64,000 nt of DNA from a bacterium (GCA_021372575.1 JAJFUE010000152.1:1995-65994); one strand, 5' to 3'; counted from the first letter of the stretch, positions 6,289-56,755 are shown. Translations and numbers: made by a program. The notes: generated by a model not told the origin, from the sequence alone.

Positions 6289-6333
6289 TGGTAGGTCATG
6301 TAGGACTCGAACCTACAACCAACAGATTAAGAG
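6289..6333 (-). repeat. Partial tRNA-Lys copy (anticodon loop through the 3' end, about 45 nt); att-like direct repeat marking the distal end of the island
   Basis: The reverse complement reads CTCTTAATCTGTTGGTTGTAGGTTCGAGTCCTACATGACCTACCA. This is near-identical to the 3' half of the intact tRNA at 10316-10391. Confidence 0.8.
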
Positions 6334-6473
6334 CGCCCCGCCGCAACTCATAAAGTATAGATAAATCATAAATGCGCGAAAGCCAAGCGTGGGTTTTGTG
6401 TGGGTTCTTGATTTTCGGCGGACTCATGTTGCTCGGCTTCCCCTGATTTGGATTGTCATGCAACCCGAACCCT

Positions 6474-9627: not shown

Positions 9628-9662
9628 GTGGTGGGTCATGAAGGACTCAAACCTACGACCAA
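9628..9662 (-). repeat. Degenerate partial tRNA-Lys 3' copy (T-arm plus acceptor); internal att-like repeat between tandem elements
   Basis: tggtgggtcatgaaggactcaaacctacgaccaa is similar to the tRNA 3' end. The preceding 12 nt (ttcaaactgagtgg) also match the flank of the intact tRNA. Confidence 0.6.
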
Positions 9663-9951
9663 ATGCCCCGCCGAAACACGGCGAGTATACAACAAACCAT
9701 TATTGTGCAAATGCGAAGCGCGGGTTTTGTGTCGGTTTCTGATTTTCGGCAGACTCATGTTGTTCGGCTTTGGGCTGCTGAAATGGCCCGGTCAGATCAT
9801 GAAGATGCTGAGCCATTCGTGCGATCTCTGTCAGCCTTTCTTTGCTCGCATGGTCGTAATGACGACTGAGAACGGATTCCCGAAATGAAAGACCCCGATG
9901 GACCGTTTGTCCATCGGGGCACTTCCGATCTGATCGAGAGATGACAACTTA

Positions 9952-10315: not shown

Positions 10316-10391
10316 TGGTGGGTCATGTAGGACTCGAACCTACAACCAACAGATTAAGAGTCTGCTGCTCTACCAATTGAGCTAATGACCC
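10316..10391 (-). tRNA. tRNA-Lys (anticodon CTT), 76 nt including the encoded CCA
   Basis: The reverse complement GGGTCATTAGCTCAATTGGTAGAGCAGCAGACTCTTAATCTGTTGGTTGTAGGTTCGAGTCCTACATGACCCACCA folds as a cloverleaf. Anticodon loop CTCTTAA. Confidence 0.9.
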
Positions 10392-13527: not shown

Positions 13528-13777
13528 TGCTCCCAGGCGCGAAATAAAATCAATCGGATCATATCAGACCGCCCCGCCCGCGTCCATTGTCAGTTCGTGC
13601 TCGTGCTTGCAATCCAAACCTGGCATAGCCAGAACCAACTGCCCCAGCCATTACCGAGTCATCGTAATCGAATCCCTTTCGTCCGCCCATCCCTCGCTCA
13701 CGCTCGGGCTAGATTGACAAAAATTTTCCGGCAATGCGCCAATCGAGATGGTTCCAAGTTTGGCGATTCGATGATGG

Positions 13778-13818
13778 GTTCGATTACGATTACGATTACG
13801 AGCACGAGCACGAACGGA
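13778..13818 (+). repeat. Hexamer-tandem dispersed repeat, copy 1: GGTTCGATTAC(GATTAC)2(GAGCAC)2GAACGG
   Basis: Direct reading of the sequence; member of a 7-copy family (see findings). Confidence 0.85.
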
Positions 13819-13873
13819 CAACTGTCGGCAAGCGCTCTACTGCACCATTCACCATCAACCATTCACCCTTCCC

Positions 13874-22728: not shown

Positions 22729-22756
22729 GGTTTCGATTACGAGCGCGAGCACGACC
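22729..22756 (+). repeat. Hexamer-tandem dispersed repeat, copy 2 (short: GGTTTCGATTACGAGCGCGAGCACGACC)
   Basis: Direct reading. Intergenic, between two minus-strand genes. Confidence 0.7.
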
Positions 22757-22764
22757 GGGGATGG

Positions 22765-27257: not shown

Positions 27258-27323
27258 GGAGATGAGGGCGGGATGGATTGAATGGGAAGAATGGGAGAAA
27301 AATGATTTGGCGATGCGGTGAGT

Positions 27324-27372
27324 GGTTCGATTACGATTACGATTACGAGCACGAATACGAATACGAATACGA
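27324..27372 (+). repeat. Hexamer-tandem dispersed repeat, copy 3: GGTTCGATTAC(GATTAC)2 GAGCAC (GAATAC)3 GA
   Basis: Direct reading. Abuts the terminator hairpin. Confidence 0.85.
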
Positions 27373-27403
27373 AAAAAAGGCCGGCGATATGCCGGCCTTT
27401 TTT
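27372..27403. terminator. Bidirectional rho-independent terminator between convergent genes
   Basis: aaaaaaaGGCCGGCgatatGCCGGCCtttttt. Confidence 0.8.
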
Positions 27404-33460: not shown

Positions 33461-35365
33461 TCATTCGAATATGACGTTGATCTCCGCGATGGCCGCGCCG
33501 AGCGTACGGAAATCGCTGTAGCCGGGCTTGTCCTGCGCGGGCGAATGCACCCAGGACAGCCCCAGCTCGATGCGGTTGTATCCTTTCGTGAGCGCGCCGG
33601 CCGGCACTTGCCAGGTTTGCGTCGAGAATCCCGCCGGCAACGCGCGCCGCTCCAGGAGCAGCGTGCCGACGCGGGGCTGGATCCACTGCGGCGGCCCGCC
33701 GGGCCACTGGAACGGCATGAGCGTGATGCTGAGCCTGGCGGGAGCGGCTCGCAGGAGGGGGAAGTTGAACCAGCCGACGGTGCGCGTGAGCCAGCGCACG
33801 GAAAAATCCTTCGACCACGTCTCGGGCTCGCTCCAGCCCGATCCGAGCAACACCGCGGGGACCCATCCCGGACGGAACGCCGGCGGGTCGCCGAGCGCCG
33901 CCGTGAGCTGGCCCAGTTTTTCGATCGGCGGCGCCTGGGCGAGCGGCTCGATCATGACGCCGCGCACAGTCGCAGTTTTCCCCTGATCGCCGAAGGCCTG
34001 ATCGACGCGCCAGTAGGGCGAGTCGGGCAGGTTTTGCGCGGCGTCGGCGGTGAACAACGGTGCGTTCACGCCCTCGCGATGCAGGTAATATTCAAGCGGC
34101 ACATGCACCAGATGGCTGGTGGCGACGATGCGCTGGCCGGGTTGAACGCGCTCGCGCAGGTAACGGGCCGCCGCGCGCCAGTCCGTTTTCCGATCGCGGT
34201 CGGCGGCGTGGAACGCAAGCATGGCGGCGGCGGCCGCGAGAACGATCGCCGGCATGAGGAACGGACGCCTCACGCGTTCGGCGATCGCCAGCGCGCCTTG
34301 CGCCATCAGCATGCACAGGCCCGGCACGCAATAGATCGTGTAGCGCGAGTAGAACTTGCGGTTGATGAGCGCATAGAACACGACGGCCGCGACCGGCAGG
34401 CCGATCGACCACAGCACGACGAACGCCGCCGCGCGCCGGTCGGCGCGGAAGGCGCGAACCGAGCCGATGAGCACGAAGGCCATTCCAAGAAGCGCGGCGC
34501 CCCATGCCAGAGCCATTTGCGGCTGGGGTCCGGCAAGGTGCTCGGCGATCCACCCGACCAGCATTGCCGGATGGATCGGAGTGAATTTCCAGAAGTATTC
34601 GGAGGGGGTGGGGATATCGACGCGCGAGCGCAGCGGCAAGGCCGCGAGAACGACCACGCCGATCAAAGCCAGAAACCAAAAGAGCGGGCTGAAATCAAAG
34701 CGCCGCCGCTCGAGTGTGGGGGCAATCAGCACAAACAGCAGCTCGCACGCAAGCACCAGCGCGGTTGCATATAATGTATAAAGCGCGACGACCGTGACGA
34801 CGCCCAAGCCGGTCAACCACGCCCACGCGTTTTTTTCGTGCTCGTGCTCGTGCTCGTGCTCGTAATCGTAATCGTAATCGAATACCCTTCCGGCCCTCAC
34901 CCACCACTCCCAAAACAGCCACATCTGACCGATGAGGAGCGCGGTGATCATCGCGTAGGGCCGGGCCTCGCGTGAATAATGAATGAGCAGCGCGTGCGCC
35001 GAGGCCAGCGCCAGCGTCGCCCACGCCACGCGCGATCCGAACAACCTGCGCGCGAAACCGAAGATCAAAACCAGGGTGATGACGCCCGCGATGGCCTCCG
35101 GCAGGCGATGGCTGACTTCCTTCGCGAGCGGCAAGCGGTCGGCAACGGACTGGATGTAATAGTCGAGCGGCGGCTTGTCGCGCGGGATGCGGTTGAGGAT
35201 TTCTGACGGCGGACCCTCGACGATCCGCGCGCTGAAGACTTCGTCGATCCAGAAGCTCTCGCGCCCCAGATCATGCACGCGCAACCAGACACCGATGGCG
35301 AGCAACGCGATGGAAATGCCAATCAGCAACGCGCCGGGTCGGGAGTATGTCGTTTCAGGGTTCAT
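33461..35365 (-). CDS. GT-C fold glycosyltransferase (family 39/83, ArnT/PMT-like) with an in-frame hexamer-repeat insertion
   Basis: ...ESFWIDEVFSARIV... and ...PPLDYYI... are ArnT/PMT_2 hallmarks, in a multi-TM topology. The internal stretch RVFDYDYDYEHEHEHEHEKNAW is encoded by repeat copy 4. Confidence 0.7.
   Translation of the reverse strand: MNPETTYSRPGALLIGISIALLAIGVWLRVHDLGRESFWIDEVFSARIVEGPPSEILNRIPRDKPPLDYYIQSVADRLPLAKEVSHRLPEAIAGVITLVLIFGFARRLFGSRVAWATLALASAHALLIHYSREARPYAMITALLIGQMWLFWEWWVRAGRVFDYDYDYEHEHEHEHEKNAWAWLTGLGVVTVVALYTLYATALVLACELLFVLIAPTLERRRFDFSPLFWFLALIGVVVLAALPLRSRVDIPTPSEYFWKFTPIHPAMLVGWIAEHLAGPQPQMALAWGAALLGMAFVLIGSVRAFRADRRAAAFVVLWSIGLPVAAVVFYALINRKFYSRYTIYCVPGLCMLMAQGALAIAERVRRPFLMPAIVLAAAAAMLAFHAADRDRKTDWRAAARYLRERVQPGQRIVATSHLVHVPLEYYLHREGVNAPLFTADAAQNLPDSPYWRVDQAFGDQGKTATVRGVMIEPLAQAPPIEKLGQLTAALGDPPAFRPGWVPAVLLGSGWSEPETWSKDFSVRWLTRTVGWFNFPLLRAAPARLSITLMPFQWPGGPPQWIQPRVGTLLLERRALPAGFSTQTWQVPAGALTKGYNRIELGLSWVHSPAQDKPGYSDFRTLGAAIAEINVIFE
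34836..34882 (-). repeat. Hexamer-tandem dispersed repeat, copy 4, in frame inside the GT39-like CDS
   Basis: tcgtgctcgtgctcgtgctcgtgctcgtaatcgtaatcgtaatcgaa is the reverse complement of TTCGATTAC(GATTAC)2(GAGCAC)4GA. Confidence 0.85.
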
Positions 35366-35519: not shown

Positions 35520-36164
35520 TTATTGTTCGCTTCTGGTCAATATTTTCACGAACGCGAAGTAGTCCCATGCGCCGTCGCGCGACTTCATGCGGTAGATTTC
35601 GTAGGCGTCCTTCGCCGAGTGCACGGTGCGCTGGCTTGCGACGTGAACGTTGGCGAGCTGGCCGCGCGAAACGAGGTTGAACACCGAATACAACTTAATC
35701 CCCGACGCCTGGTTGAGAGGCAGCAAATCGATCGCGACGGTCGTCAACTCGAGCTCGCCCGGCATGGCGCGCCCCGAGGCCCCTTCGGGATAATACACCT
35801 CCGACATATACCCGCCGAAGTCGCCGTATTTGACCTTGCAGCGCGGCGACATCAGCGTCTTCGCGAGCGGATGCGACTCGAACAGATCGACGACGTCCTG
35901 CGTGACCGGCTTGCCGAGCTCGATCTTCTTGCGCAGGTCGAAGCTCATCTTCTGATACGCAGCCGACGGCAGCGCCAGCAGCTCGATCTCGAACTGCACC
36001 TCGTTGCGGCCGATGTCGTAACGCGCCTTGACGAGCGGGGGCGCGGCGGTTTTTTGCACGGTCGTGGCCCCGGCGGGTTGATTCTGTCCAGTTGCGTGCT
36101 TGCACGCGGCGCCAAGAACGATCATCAGCATCAGGCAATAAACGGCACTCGGTCTTAACCTCAT
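35520..36164 (-). CDS. Secreted hypothetical protein; paralog of the protein at 38542-39198 (GH20-associated pair)
   Basis: Signal peptide. Shared motifs FEIELLALPSAAY / FEIELLAMPTKAY and DYFAFVKILTRSE / DYLVFLKVSQE. Confidence 0.55.
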   Translation of the reverse strand: MRLRPSAVYCLMLMIVLGAACKHATGQNQPAGATTVQKTAAPPLVKARYDIGRNEVQFEIELLALPSAAYQKMSFDLRKKIELGKPVTQDVVDLFESHPLAKTLMSPRCKVKYGDFGGYMSEVYYPEGASGRAMPGELELTTVAIDLLPLNQASGIKLYSVFNLVSRGQLANVHVASQRTVHSAKDAYEIYRMKSRDGAWDYFAFVKILTRSEQ

Positions 36165-36199: not shown

Positions 36200-36340
36200 G
36201 TCGCCCCTACGGGGCTCATGATGTGAGTGCGGCAGCTTGCTGCCGCTTAAACCCAGGGGAGCTTGCTCCCCGGTTCGCATGCCGGCCAGTCACGGGCAAG
36301 CAAGCTTGCCCGGCAAAAGCGGGAGCAAGCTCCCGCACTC
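36200..36340. other. Tandem array of 5 stem-loops, four sharing an AGCTTGCT / AGCAAGCT core. Candidate structured RNA, attenuator or REP-like array between the GH20 gene and the paralog-A gene.
   Basis: GCCCCtacGGGGC (36203-36215), GCGGCAGcttgCTGCCGC (36229-36246), GGGGAGcttgCTCCCC (36256-36271), CGGGCAAGcaagCTTGCCCG (36293-36312), GCGGGAGCaaGCTCCCGC (36319-36336). The outer GAGTGCGG...CCGCACTC pair also matches. Confidence 0.6.
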
Positions 36341-36364
36341 CACATGGACTCACGATCCACGCGC

Positions 36365-38089
36365 TTATCCTTCCACCTTGCGGATCGGGCCCGGGGCTTC
36401 GGGGGTCTTCTCCGGATCGAACGGGTTGAAGTAATAGATCCCCTTGCGGTCGCACTGGCGCAGGAACGCCGGGACGCGCTTCATGAAATCGTCGATGTTC
36501 TTGTTTGCGGCGGGCGTCCAGCCGTCCTCGGCAAGCGCGGCGAGGCGCGGGTAAAGAATGTATTGCAGGCGCTTCATCGTGGAGATCGACTCGGTCCACA
36601 CGCACGCCTCGACGCCCATGACCTGGTCCATCCTGCCCTCCGGCACGAGCTTGTCCGTCCAGCGATCGGGGAAATTATAGACGCTCTGGATCGTGTTCGT
36701 GACCTTCTTGCCGCCGTATTCCTTGCGGCCGACTTCGAGCCCCTCGTACTGGATGAAATCGAAGTAACACGGGTCGCGCGGGCAGAGAACGACCGGGAAT
36801 CCGTCCTCGACGCCCTTGGTCAGGACCTGCGGTTTTTCGTGGTGCCACCACAGCAACGCCGACTGGTTGGGGTCGATGCCGGCGGCGCCGATGTCGTCCC
36901 AGCCCATGACGATCTTGCCCATCTTGTTGATGTTGCCGGCCATGCGGCGGATGAAGTAATGCTCGAGCTCGACCTCGTTCTTGAGGCCCTGCGCGCGCGT
37001 GAACGCGAGGATCTGCGGGTCGGTCTTCCACGCCGTGTTGCCGAAGAACACCTCATCGCCGCCGATGTTGACGTATGGGCCGGGGAACATCGTCGCCAGC
37101 TCGCGCATCACGTCCGTGAGGAACTCGTAGGTCTCTTCTTTTGCCGGATTGAACGTGAAGCCCGGATACTTGGGATCGTCGCCGCCGGAGATTTCCGGGT
37201 AGGCCTTCGTGGCCGCCGTGGCGTGACCGGGCATGTCGATCTCGGGGATGATGACGATCTGGCGCTCGGCGGCGTAGGCGACGATCTCGCGGATCTCATC
37301 CTGCGTGTAATACGAGCGCACGTTGGGGTCGATGCCGCGTTCGGTCCCGCCGACCGTCGTCAGCTTCGGGTCTTTCTTGATCTCGACGCGCCAGCCCTGC
37401 GAGTCGGTCAAATGCCAGTGAAAGCGGTTCATCTTGAGGCCGGCCATCATGTCGAGGCATTCCTTGACGGCCTTCATCCCAAAGAAATGCCGTGACTCGT
37501 CGAGCATCATGCCGCGGTATCCGAACCGCGGCTCGTCGGCGATCTTGACGGCAGGCAAATTAAGCGGCCATGCGGGACCGTCATAGACCACCGGATAGTG
37601 CACCAAATGCGCATCAACCATTTGCAGCACCGATTGCACGCCGTAGAACAGGCCGGTCTCGGCGCGCGCGGTGACCTTGATGCCGCGCGGCGTGACGGTC
37701 AGTTCATAGGCTTCGGGGTTCTTCGATGAAATCAACCCCGGTTCGATCACGATCGCGCCCTTGTGCGATTGGCCGACCTTGTTAACGACGTTGACCTTGA
37801 GGTTAAGGCCGGTGCGCTCCTTAATGCCGTCCTTCAAAAACTTCGCCGAGAGCTGGCCAGCCGATGAATTGGCGTAAATTTCAGTCCCTGGAGTGACCGC
37901 GAAATGGCCTCTGCCCAATTCGCATTGGGCCGGCGCGGGGATGATCCCGACATTGCCGGCCTTGCCTGCGTTCTTCTTCGCCATCATTTCCGCGCACGCA
38001 GGCAAGAGAACGGCGATGCACGCCGCCAACACGATTCCGCCCAGCCACCGTTTCATAGCCAACCCCTCCAGTGTTCGTTGAGATGACAA
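36365..38089 (-). CDS. Beta-N-acetylhexosaminidase, glycoside hydrolase family 20 (secreted)
   Basis: Signal peptide. ...RFHWHLTDSQGWR... and ...IGGDEV... are GH20 catalytic-domain motifs. Confidence 0.8.
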   Translation of the reverse strand: MSSQRTLEGLAMKRWLGGIVLAACIAVLLPACAEMMAKKNAGKAGNVGIIPAPAQCELGRGHFAVTPGTEIYANSSAGQLSAKFLKDGIKERTGLNLKVNVVNKVGQSHKGAIVIEPGLISSKNPEAYELTVTPRGIKVTARAETGLFYGVQSVLQMVDAHLVHYPVVYDGPAWPLNLPAVKIADEPRFGYRGMMLDESRHFFGMKAVKECLDMMAGLKMNRFHWHLTDSQGWRVEIKKDPKLTTVGGTERGIDPNVRSYYTQDEIREIVAYAAERQIVIIPEIDMPGHATAATKAYPEISGGDDPKYPGFTFNPAKEETYEFLTDVMRELATMFPGPYVNIGGDEVFFGNTAWKTDPQILAFTRAQGLKNEVELEHYFIRRMAGNINKMGKIVMGWDDIGAAGIDPNQSALLWWHHEKPQVLTKGVEDGFPVVLCPRDPCYFDFIQYEGLEVGRKEYGGKKVTNTIQSVYNFPDRWTDKLVPEGRMDQVMGVEACVWTESISTMKRLQYILYPRLAALAEDGWTPAANKNIDDFMKRVPAFLRQCDRKGIYYFNPFDPEKTPEAPGPIRKVEG

Positions 38090-38147
38090 GATGTGCGACC
38101 GCGTTCCACCCGCATTGGTAGATCAAATTAAGAGGGTTCACAAGAGA

Positions 38148-38184
38148 TTATTGTCCATTCATGCTCGTACTCGTGCTCGTAATC
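38148..38184 (-). repeat. Hexamer-tandem dispersed repeat, copy 5
   Basis: The reverse complement reads ATGTTCGATTACGATTACGAGCACGAGTACGAGCATGAA. Confidence 0.8.
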
Positions 38185-38263
38185 GTAATCGAACATATCA
38201 GCGATTCGACGACCGAGACCTGTTCCGATCAGAAGGGCGTGCCGCCAGCCCCGCAGGGGCAAC

Positions 38264-38406
38264 ACGTTTGTAGCCATGCGATTTTAAAAAGAGCCGAACT
38301 CCGCAGGAGTGGCACGTGATGGGTGTGCCCGATTACGTGCCGCTCCTGCGGAGCTCGGATTTTATTGGCGATCTTTGCTACAAACGTACCGCTCCTGCGG
38401 AGCTGG
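38264..38406. repeat. Roughly 120-bp imperfect palindrome (arms acgtttgtagc...ccgaactccgcaggagtggcacg / cgtgccgctcctgcggagctc...gctacaaacgt) plus an extra direct copy of the 16-mer CCGCTCCTGCGGAGCT. MITE-like element or operator cluster upstream of GH20.
   Basis: Outer 11-mers at 38264-38274 and 38376-38386 are exact reverse complements. Inner 21-mers at 38294-38316 and 38338-38359 match 19/21. Third 16-mer copy at 38388-38406. Confidence 0.6.
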
Positions 38407-38541
38407 CTTGGCGCCGTTATCAAATGCTCATAAACCACGGAATGGCCTGACAACCGGAAAATACTTACATTCGAGACGCGGCGGCGCAAAGAATGCCCTC
38501 TTTGCGTCCCCGCGTCTCGGCGCGATAAAGACCCCGGCTTG

Positions 38542-42116: not shown

Positions 42117-42131
42117 TGGAATTTCAAAAAA

Positions 42132-42170
42132 ATCGTGCTCGTGCTCGTAATCGTAAACGCAATCGAACAC
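42132..42170 (-). repeat. Hexamer-tandem dispersed repeat, copy 6 (degenerate); forms an inverted pair with copy 7
   Basis: The reverse complement reads GTGTTCGATTGCGTTTACGATTACGAGCACGAGCACGAT. Confidence 0.75.
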
Positions 42171-42257
42171 GCGATCGCATGGAGACCATCATGCCGCATG
42201 GAAGCGAATTCGATTGCGACAAAAAATAAATATGTCGAGCGTTTCAGCGAAGGATCC

Positions 42258-42317
42258 GGATTTTCGATTACGATTACGAGCACGATTACGAGCACGATTA
42301 CGAGCACGAGCACGACG
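42258..42317 (+). repeat. Hexamer-tandem dispersed repeat, copy 7 (longest): GGATTTTCGATTACGATTACGAGCAC(GATTACGAGCAC)2GAGCACGACG
   Basis: Direct reading. Confidence 0.85.
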
Positions 42318-42340
42318 ACTTGCCATGCTTTGCGCCGAAT

Positions 42341-45125: not shown

Positions 45126-46901
45126 ATGCTCGTTGGCGCCATGAAGAACCCGACCGCGCCAGAGACCAATCCCGCGATGCTGCTTGCTGCGGCGGCGCTC
45201 GCCGTTTTGGCGTTCGCGGTGTACCTGCCCGCGATCAGCGGCGGGTTTATCTGGGACGACCTGCCGCTGGTTTTCGACAACGCGCTGCTGCGCGACAAAA
45301 CCGGGCTGTGGCGGATCTGGACGACGATCTCCAGCATGGAGGCCGAGGACCATTACCGGCCGCTGCAGTACACGCTCCTGTGGCTGCAATACCAATGCTG
45401 GGGCAACTGGACGGCCGGCTATCACGCGGTGAACATGCTGCTGCACGGGGCGGTCGCCGTTCAGATCTGGCGGCTCATGCGGCGGCTGGGGCTGCCCGGC
45501 GCGTGGATCGGAGCGGCGCTGTTCGCGGTCCATCCGGTTCACGCCGAATCCGTCGCATGGATCTTCGGCGTCAAGGACCTGGTCTCGACGCTGCTGTGCC
45601 TGGCGGCCGTGGAAATGTACCTGAATCACGAGGAACGCGGCGGCTGGAAGTGGCTGGCGCTGGCGGCCGCGGCGGTTTTCGCGGCGATGCTCGCCAAAAG
45701 CACCTCGACGATGCTGCCCTTCGCGATCGCGATCCTCGCCTGGTATCGCCGGGGGCGGATCACGCGGCGCGAAATCTTAAGCATCTCGCTGCTGGCGGCG
45801 ATCACGCTGGCCGTGGCGCTGGCCGATACCTATGTCGTAAAGATCAATAATGCAAACCGGACGATGATCGTTCCGCCGCTCATGGACCGGCTGGTACAGT
45901 CCGGCATGGCGCTGATGTTCTATCTCGGCAAGCTCGCCTGGCCGGCCGGGCTGAGCCCGATCTATCCGCAGTTCGCATACCGGCTGGGCGATCCGCTGCA
46001 TTGGCTGCCGCTGGCGGCGACCGTCCTCGTGACGGCGGTGTTGTGGCTGGCGCGCGGGAGCATCGGCCGCGGGCCGCTGGCTTGCTGGCTTGATTACGCC
46101 CTCATGCTCGCGCCGATGCTGGGCCTCGTCTATTTCGGGTTCCTGACGAAATCGCCGGTCGCCGACCGTTTCCAATACATGGCGAGCATCGGCCCGATCG
46201 TGGGCATTGCCGCGCTGGCCGGCGGCTGGATCGCGAACGCCGACGGGAAATCGCGGCTGATCCGCGCCGCGCCGGCGATCGCCGTCCTGGTGGCGCTCTC
46301 GCTGCTGACGTGGCGGCAGGCCGGCTTTTACCGCGATCAATTTACTTTTTTCCGCCGCGCACTGGAAATCGCGCCCGAATCGCCGGCCGCCTATTACTGC
46401 CTCGGCGTGCGCGCCTGGGGCCACAACGAGTTTCACGCCGCCGAGAAACTGTTCGCGGAGGCCCACCGGCTCGATTCGAAGGACAACGAAACCATTTACG
46501 CCCTGGGCAACTCGATGGCCCGGCAGGGCAAAACGGCCGAGGCGGTCAAGTTCTATCGCGATAAGATAGGCGAGGGCTGCACGAATGCGAAGGTGTGGGG
46601 CGCGCTCGCGTGGCTCCTGGCGACCGATCCGCGGGTGCGCGATCCCGAACAGGCCTTGCGGGTCGCGACCGAATGCGTTGCGCGGTCAAAGGCACCCGAT
46701 CCCAAGTTGTGGAGCACGCTCGCGGCGGCGCAGGCCGCCAACGGCCAAACGCGCGAAGCCGCCGCGACCGCCCGCAAGGCGCTGCAACTGGCCAAGGCAA
46801 ACAACCTCATCGGAGTCCAGCAAATCCTCGAGCAGTTGATCCCGCTCTACGATGAAGGCAAGCCATACATCGCGCCGCCGGCAAGCAACATCGGGTTGTA
46901 G
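45126..46901 (+). CDS. GT-C-like multi-pass membrane protein (PMT_2/DUF1736-like) with C-terminal TPR repeats (TMTC-like)
   Basis: ...AISGGFIWDDLPLV...YRPLQYTLLWLQY... N-terminal membrane domain. C-terminal ...AAYYCLGVRAWGHNEFHAAEKLFAEAHRLD... TPR-like repeats. Confidence 0.6.
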   Translation: MLVGAMKNPTAPETNPAMLLAAAALAVLAFAVYLPAISGGFIWDDLPLVFDNALLRDKTGLWRIWTTISSMEAEDHYRPLQYTLLWLQYQCWGNWTAGYHAVNMLLHGAVAVQIWRLMRRLGLPGAWIGAALFAVHPVHAESVAWIFGVKDLVSTLLCLAAVEMYLNHEERGGWKWLALAAAAVFAAMLAKSTSTMLPFAIAILAWYRRGRITRREILSISLLAAITLAVALADTYVVKINNANRTMIVPPLMDRLVQSGMALMFYLGKLAWPAGLSPIYPQFAYRLGDPLHWLPLAATVLVTAVLWLARGSIGRGPLACWLDYALMLAPMLGLVYFGFLTKSPVADRFQYMASIGPIVGIAALAGGWIANADGKSRLIRAAPAIAVLVALSLLTWRQAGFYRDQFTFFRRALEIAPESPAAYYCLGVRAWGHNEFHAAEKLFAEAHRLDSKDNETIYALGNSMARQGKTAEAVKFYRDKIGEGCTNAKVWGALAWLLATDPRVRDPEQALRVATECVARSKAPDPKLWSTLAAAQAANGQTREAAATARKALQLAKANNLIGVQQILEQLIPLYDEGKPYIAPPASNIGL

Positions 46902-47200
46902 AGTCGTTCTCGAAAATAATTTCCGTTTGCCGCTTGTAGTGCAGCACGTACTTTGGTGCGGCGGCTTGCCGCCGCTTTGTTTTGCGTTGGACGATTCCTT
47001 TATTTTTTCGCGCAAAACCGGTCGTGAGACAAAAGCGGCGGCAAGCCGCCGCACTCCAAGGCGGTTTTCGGCGCTCGATGAGCGCCCCATCAAATGTGCG
47101 ATAACTTTCGAGAAATGGTCTAATTTCGATTACAGGCACGAAAAAAGGGTGAAGCGCGGACCTGGTCCACGCTTCACCCTTCGCTCTTTTCAATTTTGTT

Positions 47201-47959
47201 TTACAGGTCCTTGCGGCCGGTGCGGATCGAGGCCTCCGTCGGGTGGATGCCCGCCTCGAGCAGGGCGCGCGTCTCGTCCTCGCCCTTGCTGCGCGCCTCG
47301 GTGCGGATCATGACCTCCTCGGCGATCTCCTGCGGGATGACCAGCACGCCGTCGGTGTCGCCCAGCAGGAAGTCCATCGGCCGGATCAGGACGTCGCCCC
47401 ACCAGATCGGCAGGTTCCAGCCGCGGATGCGCGAGTAGTGGAAGCCATCGACGCAGCTGGAGTACTTGGCGTAGATCGGGAAGCCCAGCTTGCGCACGAA
47501 GCCGACGTCCTTGGCACCGCCGTTGATGACCGCGCCGCGCACGCCGTTCTTGATGCAGGTCGTCGTGGCGAGCTCGCCCCAGAAGCCGCTCTTGTGGTCG
47601 TTGCCGCAATCGACGACGACAATCGAGTTTTTCGGATAGGAACCGACCATCTTGGCGCCCATCATGCCGCGCTCCTCGGGGCACGGGTCGCTGATCCACT
47701 GGATGGTGAACGCAAAGCCGGCCAGCGCCGGCTCGTCGTTGGTCATCCACTTGGTCAGGCACTTGACGTCCGGCCCCAGCCACTGGTTGTGGAGGTTCAT
47801 CTCCTGGAAGATGTCGATCACGGCGCCGGTGTAGAGCTTGCTGTAACGCTCGCACATGTCGTCAATATTGAGCTTGTACGGCGACGGGAACTGGCGCACC
47901 TCGCACAGGCTGAGCTCGCCGGCCTTGTTGGGCTCCATGATCATGTTGTTGTAATCCAT
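47201..47959 (-). CDS. RraA-family protein (RNase E regulator / 4-hydroxy-4-methyl-2-oxoglutarate aldolase-like)
   Basis: ...GELATTTCIKNGVRGAVINGGAKDV... is an RraA-fold signature. ATG at 47959. Confidence 0.65.
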   Translation of the reverse strand: MDYNNMIMEPNKAGELSLCEVRQFPSPYKLNIDDMCERYSKLYTGAVIDIFQEMNLHNQWLGPDVKCLTKWMTNDEPALAGFAFTIQWISDPCPEERGMMGAKMVGSYPKNSIVVVDCGNDHKSGFWGELATTTCIKNGVRGAVINGGAKDVGFVRKLGFPIYAKYSSCVDGFHYSRIRGWNLPIWWGDVLIRPMDFLLGDTDGVLVIPQEIAEEVMIRTEARSKGEDETRALLEAGIHPTEASIRTGRKDL

Positions 47960-48060
47960 CGGTCGATTCCTTCCGTTCCTGACGATATCCGGATTATTAA
48001 TTTTCCAAACTGTTTGCCGTGCCCGGGGCCCATTTCCCCCAACTATGTCTCCCGCCTGCG

Positions 48061-49419
48061 TCAAGCTTTGGCGGCTTGTTCCCGATTCAGCCACACCGTG
48101 AATATATAACTCACGATCGGCAGCAGCGCCGCGACCACAAGGATCACGGTGTAGCTCGGCTTACCGGTCGCGGCGGCTTCCGCCGAGAACCCCGGCTTGG
48201 CCGAAAATGCCAGCCACCAACCCGTGAACAGTGTGAACAACGTCGTCCCGCCCTGCTGGCCAATGCCGCTCCAGCTCATGACCGTGGCGACTTCTTGCTT
48301 CGGGAACGAGTCCGAAACGAGCGCCAGCATGTTGGCCACCCACAGCCCCCACGCGAACGTCAGGAAGCTGATGAGCGCAATCGCCAGCGCGGCCGTGTTG
48401 GTTTCAGCGATCAGGAAGCTGACCATCATCCCGACGGCGCCGATGCCCATCACGATGATGCGCGACGCAATCGGCCGTCTGCCGTTCGCGATCAACGCGC
48501 CCGACCACCAGCCGCCGACGATGTTGCCGATATCGGCCGTGGCGAACGGAATCCATGCAACCGCGGTGATTTTTGTCCAGTTGAAGCCGAATTTGTCATT
48601 CAGGTAGTTGGCGATCCAGTAGGCGACGAAGAACCACACCGGGCTGGCCAGCGCGCGCGCGATGAAAATGCCCCAAAACCGCGGCTTGACCGCGACTTCC
48701 CAGAACGGGGCCTTCTTGCCCTTGACCTGATCATGCTCGATCAGTTCGCGCTCCTCGGCCGTGATCCGCGGATGCTGGCCCGGCGCGTGATACAGGTAAA
48801 GCCAAAAGGCCACCCACGCGATCACGAACACCGGCGTCACGACGAATGCCAGGCGCCAGTTGCCGGTCACCGCCAGCGCAAAGCCCATGATCCATGGGGC
48901 GACGATCGCGCCGATCGACACGCCGCCGTTGAAGAATCCCATCGCCAGGCCGCGCTCCCTCGTCGGGAACCACTCGGCGACCGCCTTGCCGGCGCACGGC
49001 CAGTTGCCCGCCTCGCCGATCGCAAGGATGGAACGCAGCACGATCAGGCCAACCAGGCCGGCCGACAGCGTCATCGCCCCGATCGTGATCGTCCCCGTCG
49101 GCAGCAACGCGTGCATGGCCGCCGAAACCGACCAGATGCCAATGAACAGGACGAACCCGACGCGTGTTCCGATTTTGTCAATGATCGGGCCGACAAAAAA
49201 CAACGCCGCCACCGTCGCAATCGTAAACGCCGAAACGATCCACGAATATTCAAGGTTGCCAAACCCGAGTTCTTTCTTGAGCGTCGGAGCGAGGAACGAC
49301 AGCAGCTGCCGATCGACATAGTTCAGCACCGTGGACAGGAACAACATCAGCAGGATATACCACCTTAGATGCCCCGTTCTCATCCCACGGACGACTTCTT
49401 TCCAACCTTTTCCTGCCAC
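48061..49419 (-). CDS. MFS transporter
   Basis: 12-TM architecture. ...LNYVDRQLLSFLAPTLKKELGF... N-terminal MFS motif. Confidence 0.75.
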   Translation of the reverse strand: MAGKGWKEVVRGMRTGHLRWYILLMLFLSTVLNYVDRQLLSFLAPTLKKELGFGNLEYSWIVSAFTIATVAALFFVGPIIDKIGTRVGFVLFIGIWSVSAAMHALLPTGTITIGAMTLSAGLVGLIVLRSILAIGEAGNWPCAGKAVAEWFPTRERGLAMGFFNGGVSIGAIVAPWIMGFALAVTGNWRLAFVVTPVFVIAWVAFWLYLYHAPGQHPRITAEERELIEHDQVKGKKAPFWEVAVKPRFWGIFIARALASPVWFFVAYWIANYLNDKFGFNWTKITAVAWIPFATADIGNIVGGWWSGALIANGRRPIASRIIVMGIGAVGMMVSFLIAETNTAALAIALISFLTFAWGLWVANMLALVSDSFPKQEVATVMSWSGIGQQGGTTLFTLFTGWWLAFSAKPGFSAEAAATGKPSYTVILVVAALLPIVSYIFTVWLNREQAAKA

Positions 49420-56339: not shown

Positions 56340-56755
56340 ACCGCCCGAAAGCAGCCTCCGCAGGCATCGACCCCATTGGAGAAGCCACGCGCGGGTTGAC
56401 ACTCGGCGCCGATGCCGTTATGTTTTTTACAGAAGGGTGCAAAAGCTATCAAGCTGGCGCAGGAATTCGGATGGTCGGGCCGCCATCCAGTTGATGATGT
56501 CAATTCACAATTGGAGGGGTCCCATGTTTTCCTGGAAAATCCCAAACACCGCCCTTGTCTTTTTTCGCTCTCCACTTCATCCCAAAATGAATAGCGCCTG
56601 TTAATCCTGGGCAAACACCGGGGCGCACGGGGCGTCTCGGTCATAAACATACTTATTTTTCTAATTCGTGCTGCACACGCGGTCGCCTGAATGGACAGCT
56701 GGGTATTGCGTGCCGTGGGTGGGTTGTCGTGTTCGCATGGACGGAGGTCGGCATC

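Follow-up and report, generated by a model that had tools for sequence, protein, structure and literature searches.

A hairpin array downstream of a GH20 gene is probably a REPIN of a TGGAGT-tagged REP family associated with RAYT genes

REP elements are substrates of an HUH/Y1 enzyme that takes single-stranded DNA (ssDNA) hairpins with an adjacent guide tag and cuts and joins them, as in E. coli TnpA-REP (4ER8) and the REPINs of Pseudomonas. Classical REPs can also give partial transcription termination or form a barrier to 3'-exonucleases. Neisseria uptake sequences, Correia elements, and ERIC are other intergenic inverted repeats and may double as terminators; to our knowledge, and unlike the unit described here, they have neither a compensated self-complementary hairpin nor an association with a REP-associated tyrosine transposase (RAYT). 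REPIN-RAYT systems have been described as mostly inherited vertically, with horizontal transfer allowed over very long time scales; RAYT groups that evolve slowly and occur in many bacterial classes are among them (Bertels et al., 2017; PMC5581495). For the RAYT ABY36092.1 of Chloroflexus aurantiacus, placed in TnpA-Y1 subclass 2.2, REPs of the form GGAGTGCGGCAGC-CAT-GCTGCCG have been listed, and no cross-phylum family was described (Quentin et al., 2018; PMC6006769, Table S1). The systems formed by the GTAG and CGTC REP superfamilies and by the repeats that flank TIRYT genes include PVC bacteria and Acidobacteria (Di Nocera et al., 2013; PMC3733652).

In this study, we analyzed an array of hairpins at 36200-36340 of a 64-kb stretch of bacterial DNA, hereafter called the window. 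An earlier note had described the array as five perfect hairpins with 6-8-bp stems in an intergenic region and had offered a REP-like element and a structured ncRNA among its possible identities. We consider it probable, at roughly 0.85, that the array is a REPIN, namely an inverted doublet of REPs that belong to a TGGAGT-tagged, RAYT-copied family.

The hairpins were confirmed and greatly exceed chance expectation. The 200-nt intergenic spacer folded with z = -4.8 on the minus strand and z = -4.95 on the plus strand when compared with dinucleotide shuffles. In an exhaustive perfect-hairpin scan, four of the five proposed hairpins had the stem length claimed for them, and the one at 36203-36215 had a stem of just 5 bp. 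The sequence core said to be shared by four hairpins was recovered as AGCTTGCT at 36234 and 36260 on the plus strand and at 36299 and 36324 on the minus strand; these are four of the five matches in the window, with 1.2 expected per 64 kb. The outer pair was also found, as GAGTGCGG (36225-36232) and CCGCACTC (36333-36340).

Four of the hairpins make up one element of ~124 nt (36221-36344), in the order REP, inner hairpin, spacer, inner hairpin, REP. The left REP unit (36221-36249, plus strand) matches the search pattern GTGCGGNNGCTTGCNNCCGCTT with 0 mismatches and has a degenerate tag, ATGTGAGT compared with the consensus TTTGGAGT. Its hairpin (36229-36246, plus strand), GCGGCAG-CTTG-CTGCCGC, has a perfect 7-bp stem and is followed by TTA. 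The inner-left hairpin (36256-36271, plus strand) is untagged and reads GGGGAG-CTTG-CTCCCC, with a 6-bp stem. The central spacer of the doublet (36272-36292) is unconserved in the family, the position-frequency table showing no conservation beyond the 29-nt unit. The inner-right hairpin (36293-36312, minus strand), again untagged, has an 8-bp stem and reads CGGGCAAG-CAAG-CTTGCCCG on the plus strand and CGGGCAAG-CTTG-CTTGCCCG on the minus strand. AAGCTT, to which the earlier note had drawn attention as a possible protein-binding palindrome, is present in this hairpin and in no other, and is incidental. The right REP unit is inverted (36316-36344, minus strand); it reads TGTGGAGT-GCGGGAG-CTTG-CTCCCGC-TTT and is also a pattern match, and its 7-bp hairpin (36319-36336) reads GCGGGAG-CAAG-CTCCCGC on the plus strand.

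The left and right stems differ by a compensated change, CAG/CTG versus GAG/CTC, which leaves each local hairpin perfect, yet introduces mismatches into the long pairing between left and right. Two folds were predicted, one long hairpin at -75 to -78 kcal/mol and four local hairpins at -53 kcal/mol. The fifth hairpin (36203-36215), GCCCC-TAC-GGGGC, lies outside the doublet and beyond the conserved edges, lacks the tag, the CTTG loop, and the shared core, and is an unrelated neighbor rather than a part of the element. It gave no match to the covariance model R1 (see below) and only a weak, partial match to Acido-Lenti-1 (15.5 bits versus a gathering score of 37). One other hairpin like it is found in the window, at 38248-38260.

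The array lies between two genes on the minus strand, which are co-directional as the earlier note had stated. The upstream gene (36365-38089) encodes a GH20 beta-N-acetylhexosaminidase (Pfam PF00728, 4.6e-102; PF02838, 1.8e-21) that matches an NCBI MAG protein at 100% identity. The downstream gene is a 214-aa ORF (35520-36164) with no Pfam domain. The gap between them is 200 nt, of which ~124 nt are the element. In the closest available GH20 relative, L121, the GH20 protein is 64% identical and the gene order is the same, the gene after GH20 corresponding to the 214-aa ORF (28% identity, E 4e-26). The gap there is 27 nt and contains no REP unit and no R1 match. The short gap without the element agrees with an insertion between closely spaced, probably co-transcribed genes; L121 is too distant for the insertion to be mapped to the base.

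Two other repetitive features were noticed in the window. A repeat with a period of 6 nt, GTTCGATTACGATTACGA(T/G)(T/C)ACGAGCACGA..., occurs at seven places in the 64 kb, in both orientations and mostly in intergenic positions: 13759-13821 (+), 22731-22758 (+), 27306-27388 (+), 34815-34895 (-), 38147-38208 (-), 42121-42180 (-), and 42243-42331 (+). It is also seen at L122:72-101 and in a Candidatus Sumerlaeia MAG. Of these copies, one closely precedes the GH20 gene and one has a terminator hairpin after it. Translated in one frame, the repeat reads F-D-Y-D-Y-(D-Y)-E-H-E-H-E. The repeat could represent a mini-ORF that codes for a peptide, an RNA or protein-binding array, or a simple repeat specific to the lineage. 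The region 38233-38418, upstream of the GH20 gene, is rich in hairpins and includes an 83-nt near-perfect palindrome (38285-38367). Several hairpins of the CTCCGCAGGAG / GCCCCGCAGGGGC type lie there inside an inverted ACGTTTGTAGC / GCTACAAACGT pair, and the region may represent a different palindromic repeat family. The only Rfam matches of this region, to miRNA-precursor models near 38285-38367, were rejected as spurious, since they reflect just the long palindrome.

The window contains the hairpin design a second time, in the unrelated intergenic region between two convergent genes (46952-47060). The left REP (46952-46978, plus strand) reads TTTGG--T-GCGGCGG-CTTG-CCGCCGC-TTT, with a 2-nt deletion in the tag, and begins 51 nt past the stop codon of a PMT_2/TPR gene (45126-46901, plus strand). 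The right REP (47032-47060, minus strand), CTTGGAGT-GCGGCGG-CTTG-CCGCCGC-TTT, is downstream of the convergent RraA-like gene (47201-48094, minus strand). The perfect-hairpin scan placed the two hairpins at 46958-46975 and 47035-47052. Neither neighboring gene is related to GH20. The pattern GTGCGGNNGCTTGCNNCCGCTT had exactly four matches in the window, which are two inverted pairs, against 0.19 expected; the 64 kb thus contain two doublets. Both doublets (36221-36344 and 46952-47060) have a short spacer and could fold into a long hairpin.

The unit was delimited from copies in other genomes as a palindrome of 29 nt, TTTGGAGT-GCGGnnG-CTTG-CnnCCGC-TTT, with perfect 7-bp stems and an unpaired tag at the stem foot. 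Among 145 distinct copies, conservation starts abruptly at position -6 (TTTGGA) and stops one T past the pattern, and the flanks are random. The middle of the stem varies with pairing kept, giving 16 distinct, perfectly paired stems among 226 CTTG-loop copies. The 22-nt pattern was found in at least 120 genome stretches of at least 12 phyla (GTDB, one genome per species), where the taxon labels are those of the MAG records and some of the cross-phylum matches are on short contigs that are possibly mis-binned. About 17 stretches would be expected by chance (1.2e12 positions / 4^18, for 18 specified bases). Among the matches listed, the stretches come from MAGs of Acidobacteriota (the majority), Planctomycetota, Verrucomicrobiota including Kiritimatiellia, Chlamydiota, Hydrogenedentota, Armatimonadota, Nitrospirota, several classes of Pseudomonadota, Myxococcota-like bacteria, Binatia, Zixibacteria, Dormiibacterota, and an FCB-group bacterium. 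Megabase contigs of four phyla also bear the unit, and several copies per contig were seen in other MAGs. The unit was not found in the plasmid collection. A scan of viral contigs yielded 12 stretches with the unit, which are too few to bear on vectors.

Inverted pairs with the tags outward and spacers of 8-130 nt were the prevailing arrangement (61 pairs), and divergent (10) and direct (8) pairs were counted within the same distance (<=130 nt). Tandem arrays were also seen, for example in L099. Of 224 copies, 63 have an untagged CTTG-loop hairpin 3-9 nt to the inner side of the REP, and 1 has such a hairpin on the outer side. The element at 36221-36344 is built with the inner kind. No flank identity of 3 nt or more exceeded chance in 67 doublets, and an absence of target-site duplication is expected of HUH/Y1 elements.

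In several Acidobacteriota and Chlamydiota loci, among them L053, L084, and L050/L080, the inverted repeat reaches outward past the 29-nt unit, as in GCGAAGCTT-TGGAGTGC...GCACTCCA-AAGCTTCGC. One Chlamydiae MAG has an identical 30-nt flank at both ends of its 177-nt copies. With these outward extensions, the mobile unit is longer in those lineages.

All-against-all clustering of the ORFs in 120 pattern-derived loci gave no recurrent neighbor gene (the largest cluster covered 12 loci), so that the link to a RAYT came only from a targeted phmmer search. E. coli RayT from NC_000913 was used as the query against all ORFs of the fetched loci. One clear match was obtained, in L082 (E 6.7e-7); the protein has a Y1_Tnp domain (Pfam PF01797, 1.9e-7) and the motifs NHYH and YVHNNP. 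Its gene lies between REP units, in the plus orientation on one side and the minus orientation on the other. A further RAYT locus, L204, was read directly like L082, and units flank the gene there too. The same query gave no RAYT gene in the 64-kb window (E <= 10), and a cognate RAYT is assumed in the organism of the window. By its GH20 protein (57% identity), the nearest named lineage is a Candidatus Sumerlaeia MAG, which has a RAYT of the same family with CTTG-type doublets before the gene.

The surroundings of the gene in L082 (141-3488, an FCB-group MAG) look like a type I restriction-modification operon, the RAYT and its REPs being situated between a methylase gene and an ORF that resembles the C-terminal part of a restriction subunit.

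The RAYT family comprised 4635 homologues at E <= 1e-10, and the best 120 of these 4635 were 55-80% identical. Source labels include Sumerlaeia, Hydrogenedentes, Chloroflexi, and Clostridia, with the Chloroflexi homologues at 60-63% identity. Three members scored 97-100 bits on NCBIfam NF047646, 'REP-associated tyrosine transposase' (REP_Tyr_transpos; cut-off 80), and the sole PDB relative of the family profile was 4ER8, E. coli TnpA-REP. Eighty metagenome RAYT loci were then fetched by protein similarity alone (alignment A1, 30 members), and tagged hairpins, defined as TGGAGT with at most 1 mismatch followed by a hairpin, were counted within 400 nt of the gene. Upstream of the gene, 68 of 70 loci had such a hairpin; downstream, 69 of 74 did. 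Their density was 6.28 per kb beside the RAYT gene, 0.39 at >1 kb, and 0.19 in shuffles, a 16-fold excess over distal sequence. In these relatives the same repeats are thus on both sides of a RAYT gene, the arrangement known as a REPtron. The tag and the GC foot of the flanking units are constant, and the loop (CTTG, CAT, GCTC, TCT, CACG, TTCA, and others) and the stem vary by lineage.

Membership of the window units in this family was evaluated with a covariance model, R1, that was built from 81 RAYT-flanking units. Units with CTTG or CAAG loops were excluded from its training, as was anything from the pattern scan or the window, to avoid circularity. In an unfiltered search of the window, the top four matches were exactly the four REP units: 47032-47060 on the minus strand (43.8 bits, E 2.1e-8), 36316-36344 on the minus strand (41.7 bits, E 6.4e-8), 46952-46978 on the plus strand (31.5 bits, E 1.7e-5), and 36225-36249 on the plus strand (23.2 bits, E 1.6e-3). 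The E-values are rough because calibration was shortened. The next matches, at E 0.15 and above, were the other strand of the same hairpins or noise. The R1 alignment showed changes on both sides in five of seven stem pairs (116 cells versus 25 in shuffles); its sequences had been preselected at <=1 stem mismatch, so that the percentage of paired cells was in part set in advance. The REP-like option of the earlier note is thus the one that held, given the recurrence at a second site of the window and in at least 120 genome stretches, the position beside RAYT genes, and the recovery of all four units by R1.

Compared with canonical REP, BIME, and REPIN systems and their RAYTs (E. coli RayT/TnpA-REP and the Pseudomonas REPINs), the family is alike in its short extragenic palindrome, whose conserved 5' tag is unpaired; in its prevailing inverted doublets, which have a short spacer and no target-site duplication; and in a single Y1/HUH transposase gene flanked on both sides. 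It differs in the tag, which is TTTGGAGT with GAGT at the stem foot instead of the canonical GT[AG]G, in the conserved CTTG loop, and in the additional inner, untagged CTTG-loop hairpin of about a quarter of the copies. The canonical 5' GT[AG]G guide was absent from the unit. Published subclasses include non-canonical tags (PMC6006769), and GT[AG]G accordingly defines the canonical subset rather than the whole kind. The Chloroflexus REPs share the tag and the stem as judged from the tabulated repeat, but they have a CAT triloop on an 8-bp stem, whereas the present family has a CTTG tetraloop on a 7-bp stem. The CAT-loop kind also flanks RAYT homologues in L148 and L169. The GTAG and CGTC superfamilies and the TIRYT-flanking repeats are similar as tagged stem-loop dimers with tyrosine transposases, but the tag found here matches none of GTAG, CGTC, and GGGGWSAS, and the string GGAGTGC is absent from the supplements of that study (PMC3733652). 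A full-text literature search for the repeat sequence returned just unrelated primer matches. The array does not reveal a new kind of system. A repeat with its tag is in the 2018 table for Chloroflexus. We found one 29-nt unit kept across at least 12 phyla, whereas the literature cited here describes REPIN-RAYT systems mainly from Proteobacteria; the slowly evolving RAYT groups fit the conservation of the unit (Bertels et al., 2017; PMC5581495).

The strongest competing explanation is that the units are host-evolved intrinsic terminators or attenuators, the first locus uncoupling GH20 from the next gene and the second acting as a bidirectional terminator; we regard this as unlikely. Every unit forms a GC-rich hairpin that has a stable CUUG loop and U's after it, and three of the four units in the window are directed away from the 3' end of a gene in the same orientation. 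With a terminator-like hairpin defined as a GC-rich hairpin followed directly by a U-rich tract (>=5 U in 8 nt), both units of the second locus passed the scan, one per strand, but those of the first locus failed it, their tails being only UUUUG and UUA. Among singletons in other genomes, 49 were behind a co-oriented gene and 32 were not, but this bias is weak and comes from crude gene calls (a home-made, GC3-based gene caller, indicative only). Moreover, a terminator does not need the conserved TTTGGAGT tag and does not keep a 29-nt sequence across phyla, and the units cluster on both sides of RAYT genes in both orientations. Given the clustering at RAYT genes and the conservation of the tag, termination can be no more than a side effect of a mobile repeat, as known from classical REPs.

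Far less probable is a structured cis-regulatory or small RNA peculiar to the GH20 operon, for example a riboswitch, a processing site, or a Yfr1-like sRNA with an ACUCC anti-Shine-Dalgarno motif. The strong fold, the covarying stems, and a sub-threshold match to Yfr1 on the plus strand (19.2 bits versus a gathering score of 38) speak for such an RNA. However, no Rfam family (Rfam 15) reached its gathering threshold for the array in a search of the locus at E <= 10, and the window, scanned at gathering thresholds, yielded only a tRNA and nhaA-I. The neighbors of the element are unrelated and share no recurrent protein family, the element occurs in both orientations and in tandem arrays, and the orthologous junction of L121 lacks it. 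Recognition of an ssDNA hairpin would account for the covariation equally well. The ncRNA proposed by the earlier note, taken as specific to this locus, is therefore not supported, and attenuation or processing, which it had also suggested, is kept as a possible side effect of the array.

The nhaA-I RNA motif is at 56435-56488 on the plus strand (47.8 bits versus an Rfam gathering score of 37). The sole intact tRNA of the window is a tRNA Lys-CTT (10316-10391, minus strand). Copies of its 3' half are present at 6289-6333 (98% identity) and 9629-9673 (71%), and each half-copy has a similar 77-nt flank (6363-6439 and 9694-9770; 83%). This is the pattern expected of one or two integrative elements in tandem at a tRNA gene.

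A MITE of a DDE-transposase insertion sequence, with the units as terminal inverted repeats, is the least probable of the three: the inverted-repeat architecture, the length of 56-180 nt, the dispersed occurrence, and the sharp ends agree with it, but target-site duplications did not exceed chance, units are commonly single or in tandem or direct arrays, the supposed terminal repeats are themselves hairpins in which stem changes are compensated, the sole consistently bracketed gene is a Y1/HUH RAYT and not a DDE transposase, and in 200 loci no units bracketed a DDE transposase with fixed-length direct repeats. A Haemophilus-type uptake signal was considered on account of AGTGCGG in the unit, which we take to resemble the Haemophilus uptake core, and was dropped, as the hairpin covaries and the association with RAYT explains the conservation; a tRNA-like minihelix with a CCA end and CsrA/GGA sites had just a short string resemblance in their favor and were also set aside.

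For the REPIN that we favor, the following mechanism is proposed. The element would be non-autonomous, and a single-copy RAYT of the HUH/Y1 type would recognize, cut, and join the ssDNA hairpin together with its tag. Such handling of the TGGAGT-tagged family is inferred by analogy with E. coli TnpA-REP. The RAYT gene would lie between the same REPs elsewhere in the genome of the window's organism. A RAYT-mediated insertion would have put a copy between genes that used to adjoin and to be transcribed together, as a comparison of the two junctions suggests. In the minus-strand transcript, the right REP hairpin (-13.6 kcal/mol), with UUUUG behind it, is the first structure past the GH20 stop codon. 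This hairpin and the remaining structure might then act as a partial terminator or as a barrier to 3'-exonucleases, which would favor GH20 over the downstream gene. By analogy with classical REPs, partial termination or 3'-end protection of the GH20 transcript is a plausible side effect.

A wider proposal, which we put forward tentatively and hold to be rather doubtful, is that the copies represent one REPIN-RAYT lineage, with a near-invariant 29-nt REP (TTTGGAGT, CTTG), a 55-80%-identical transposase, a presence in at least 12 phyla, and a composite doublet of four hairpins whose untagged inner members have the loop in common. If true, a near-invariant lineage would provide a simple, widely conserved substrate for RAYT biochemistry, and repeated inter-phylum transfer or loop-specific recognition, if either is true, would extend the mostly vertical, Proteobacteria-centered picture of REPINs.

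For the annotation of the window, the cluster should be labeled a REP doublet and the candidate regulatory RNA removed, and effects on the expression of the GH20 operon should be treated as by-products of insertion. For the family, a REP with a non-canonical tag is delineated that can be found by the 29-nt model and that is linked to a well-conserved clade of RAYTs from little-studied phyla, including Acidobacteriota, the PVC group, Hydrogenedentota, and Sumerlaeota. The family may be of use in repeat masking, in diagnostics of MAG assembly and binning, and as a test case for the spread of REPIN-RAYT systems.
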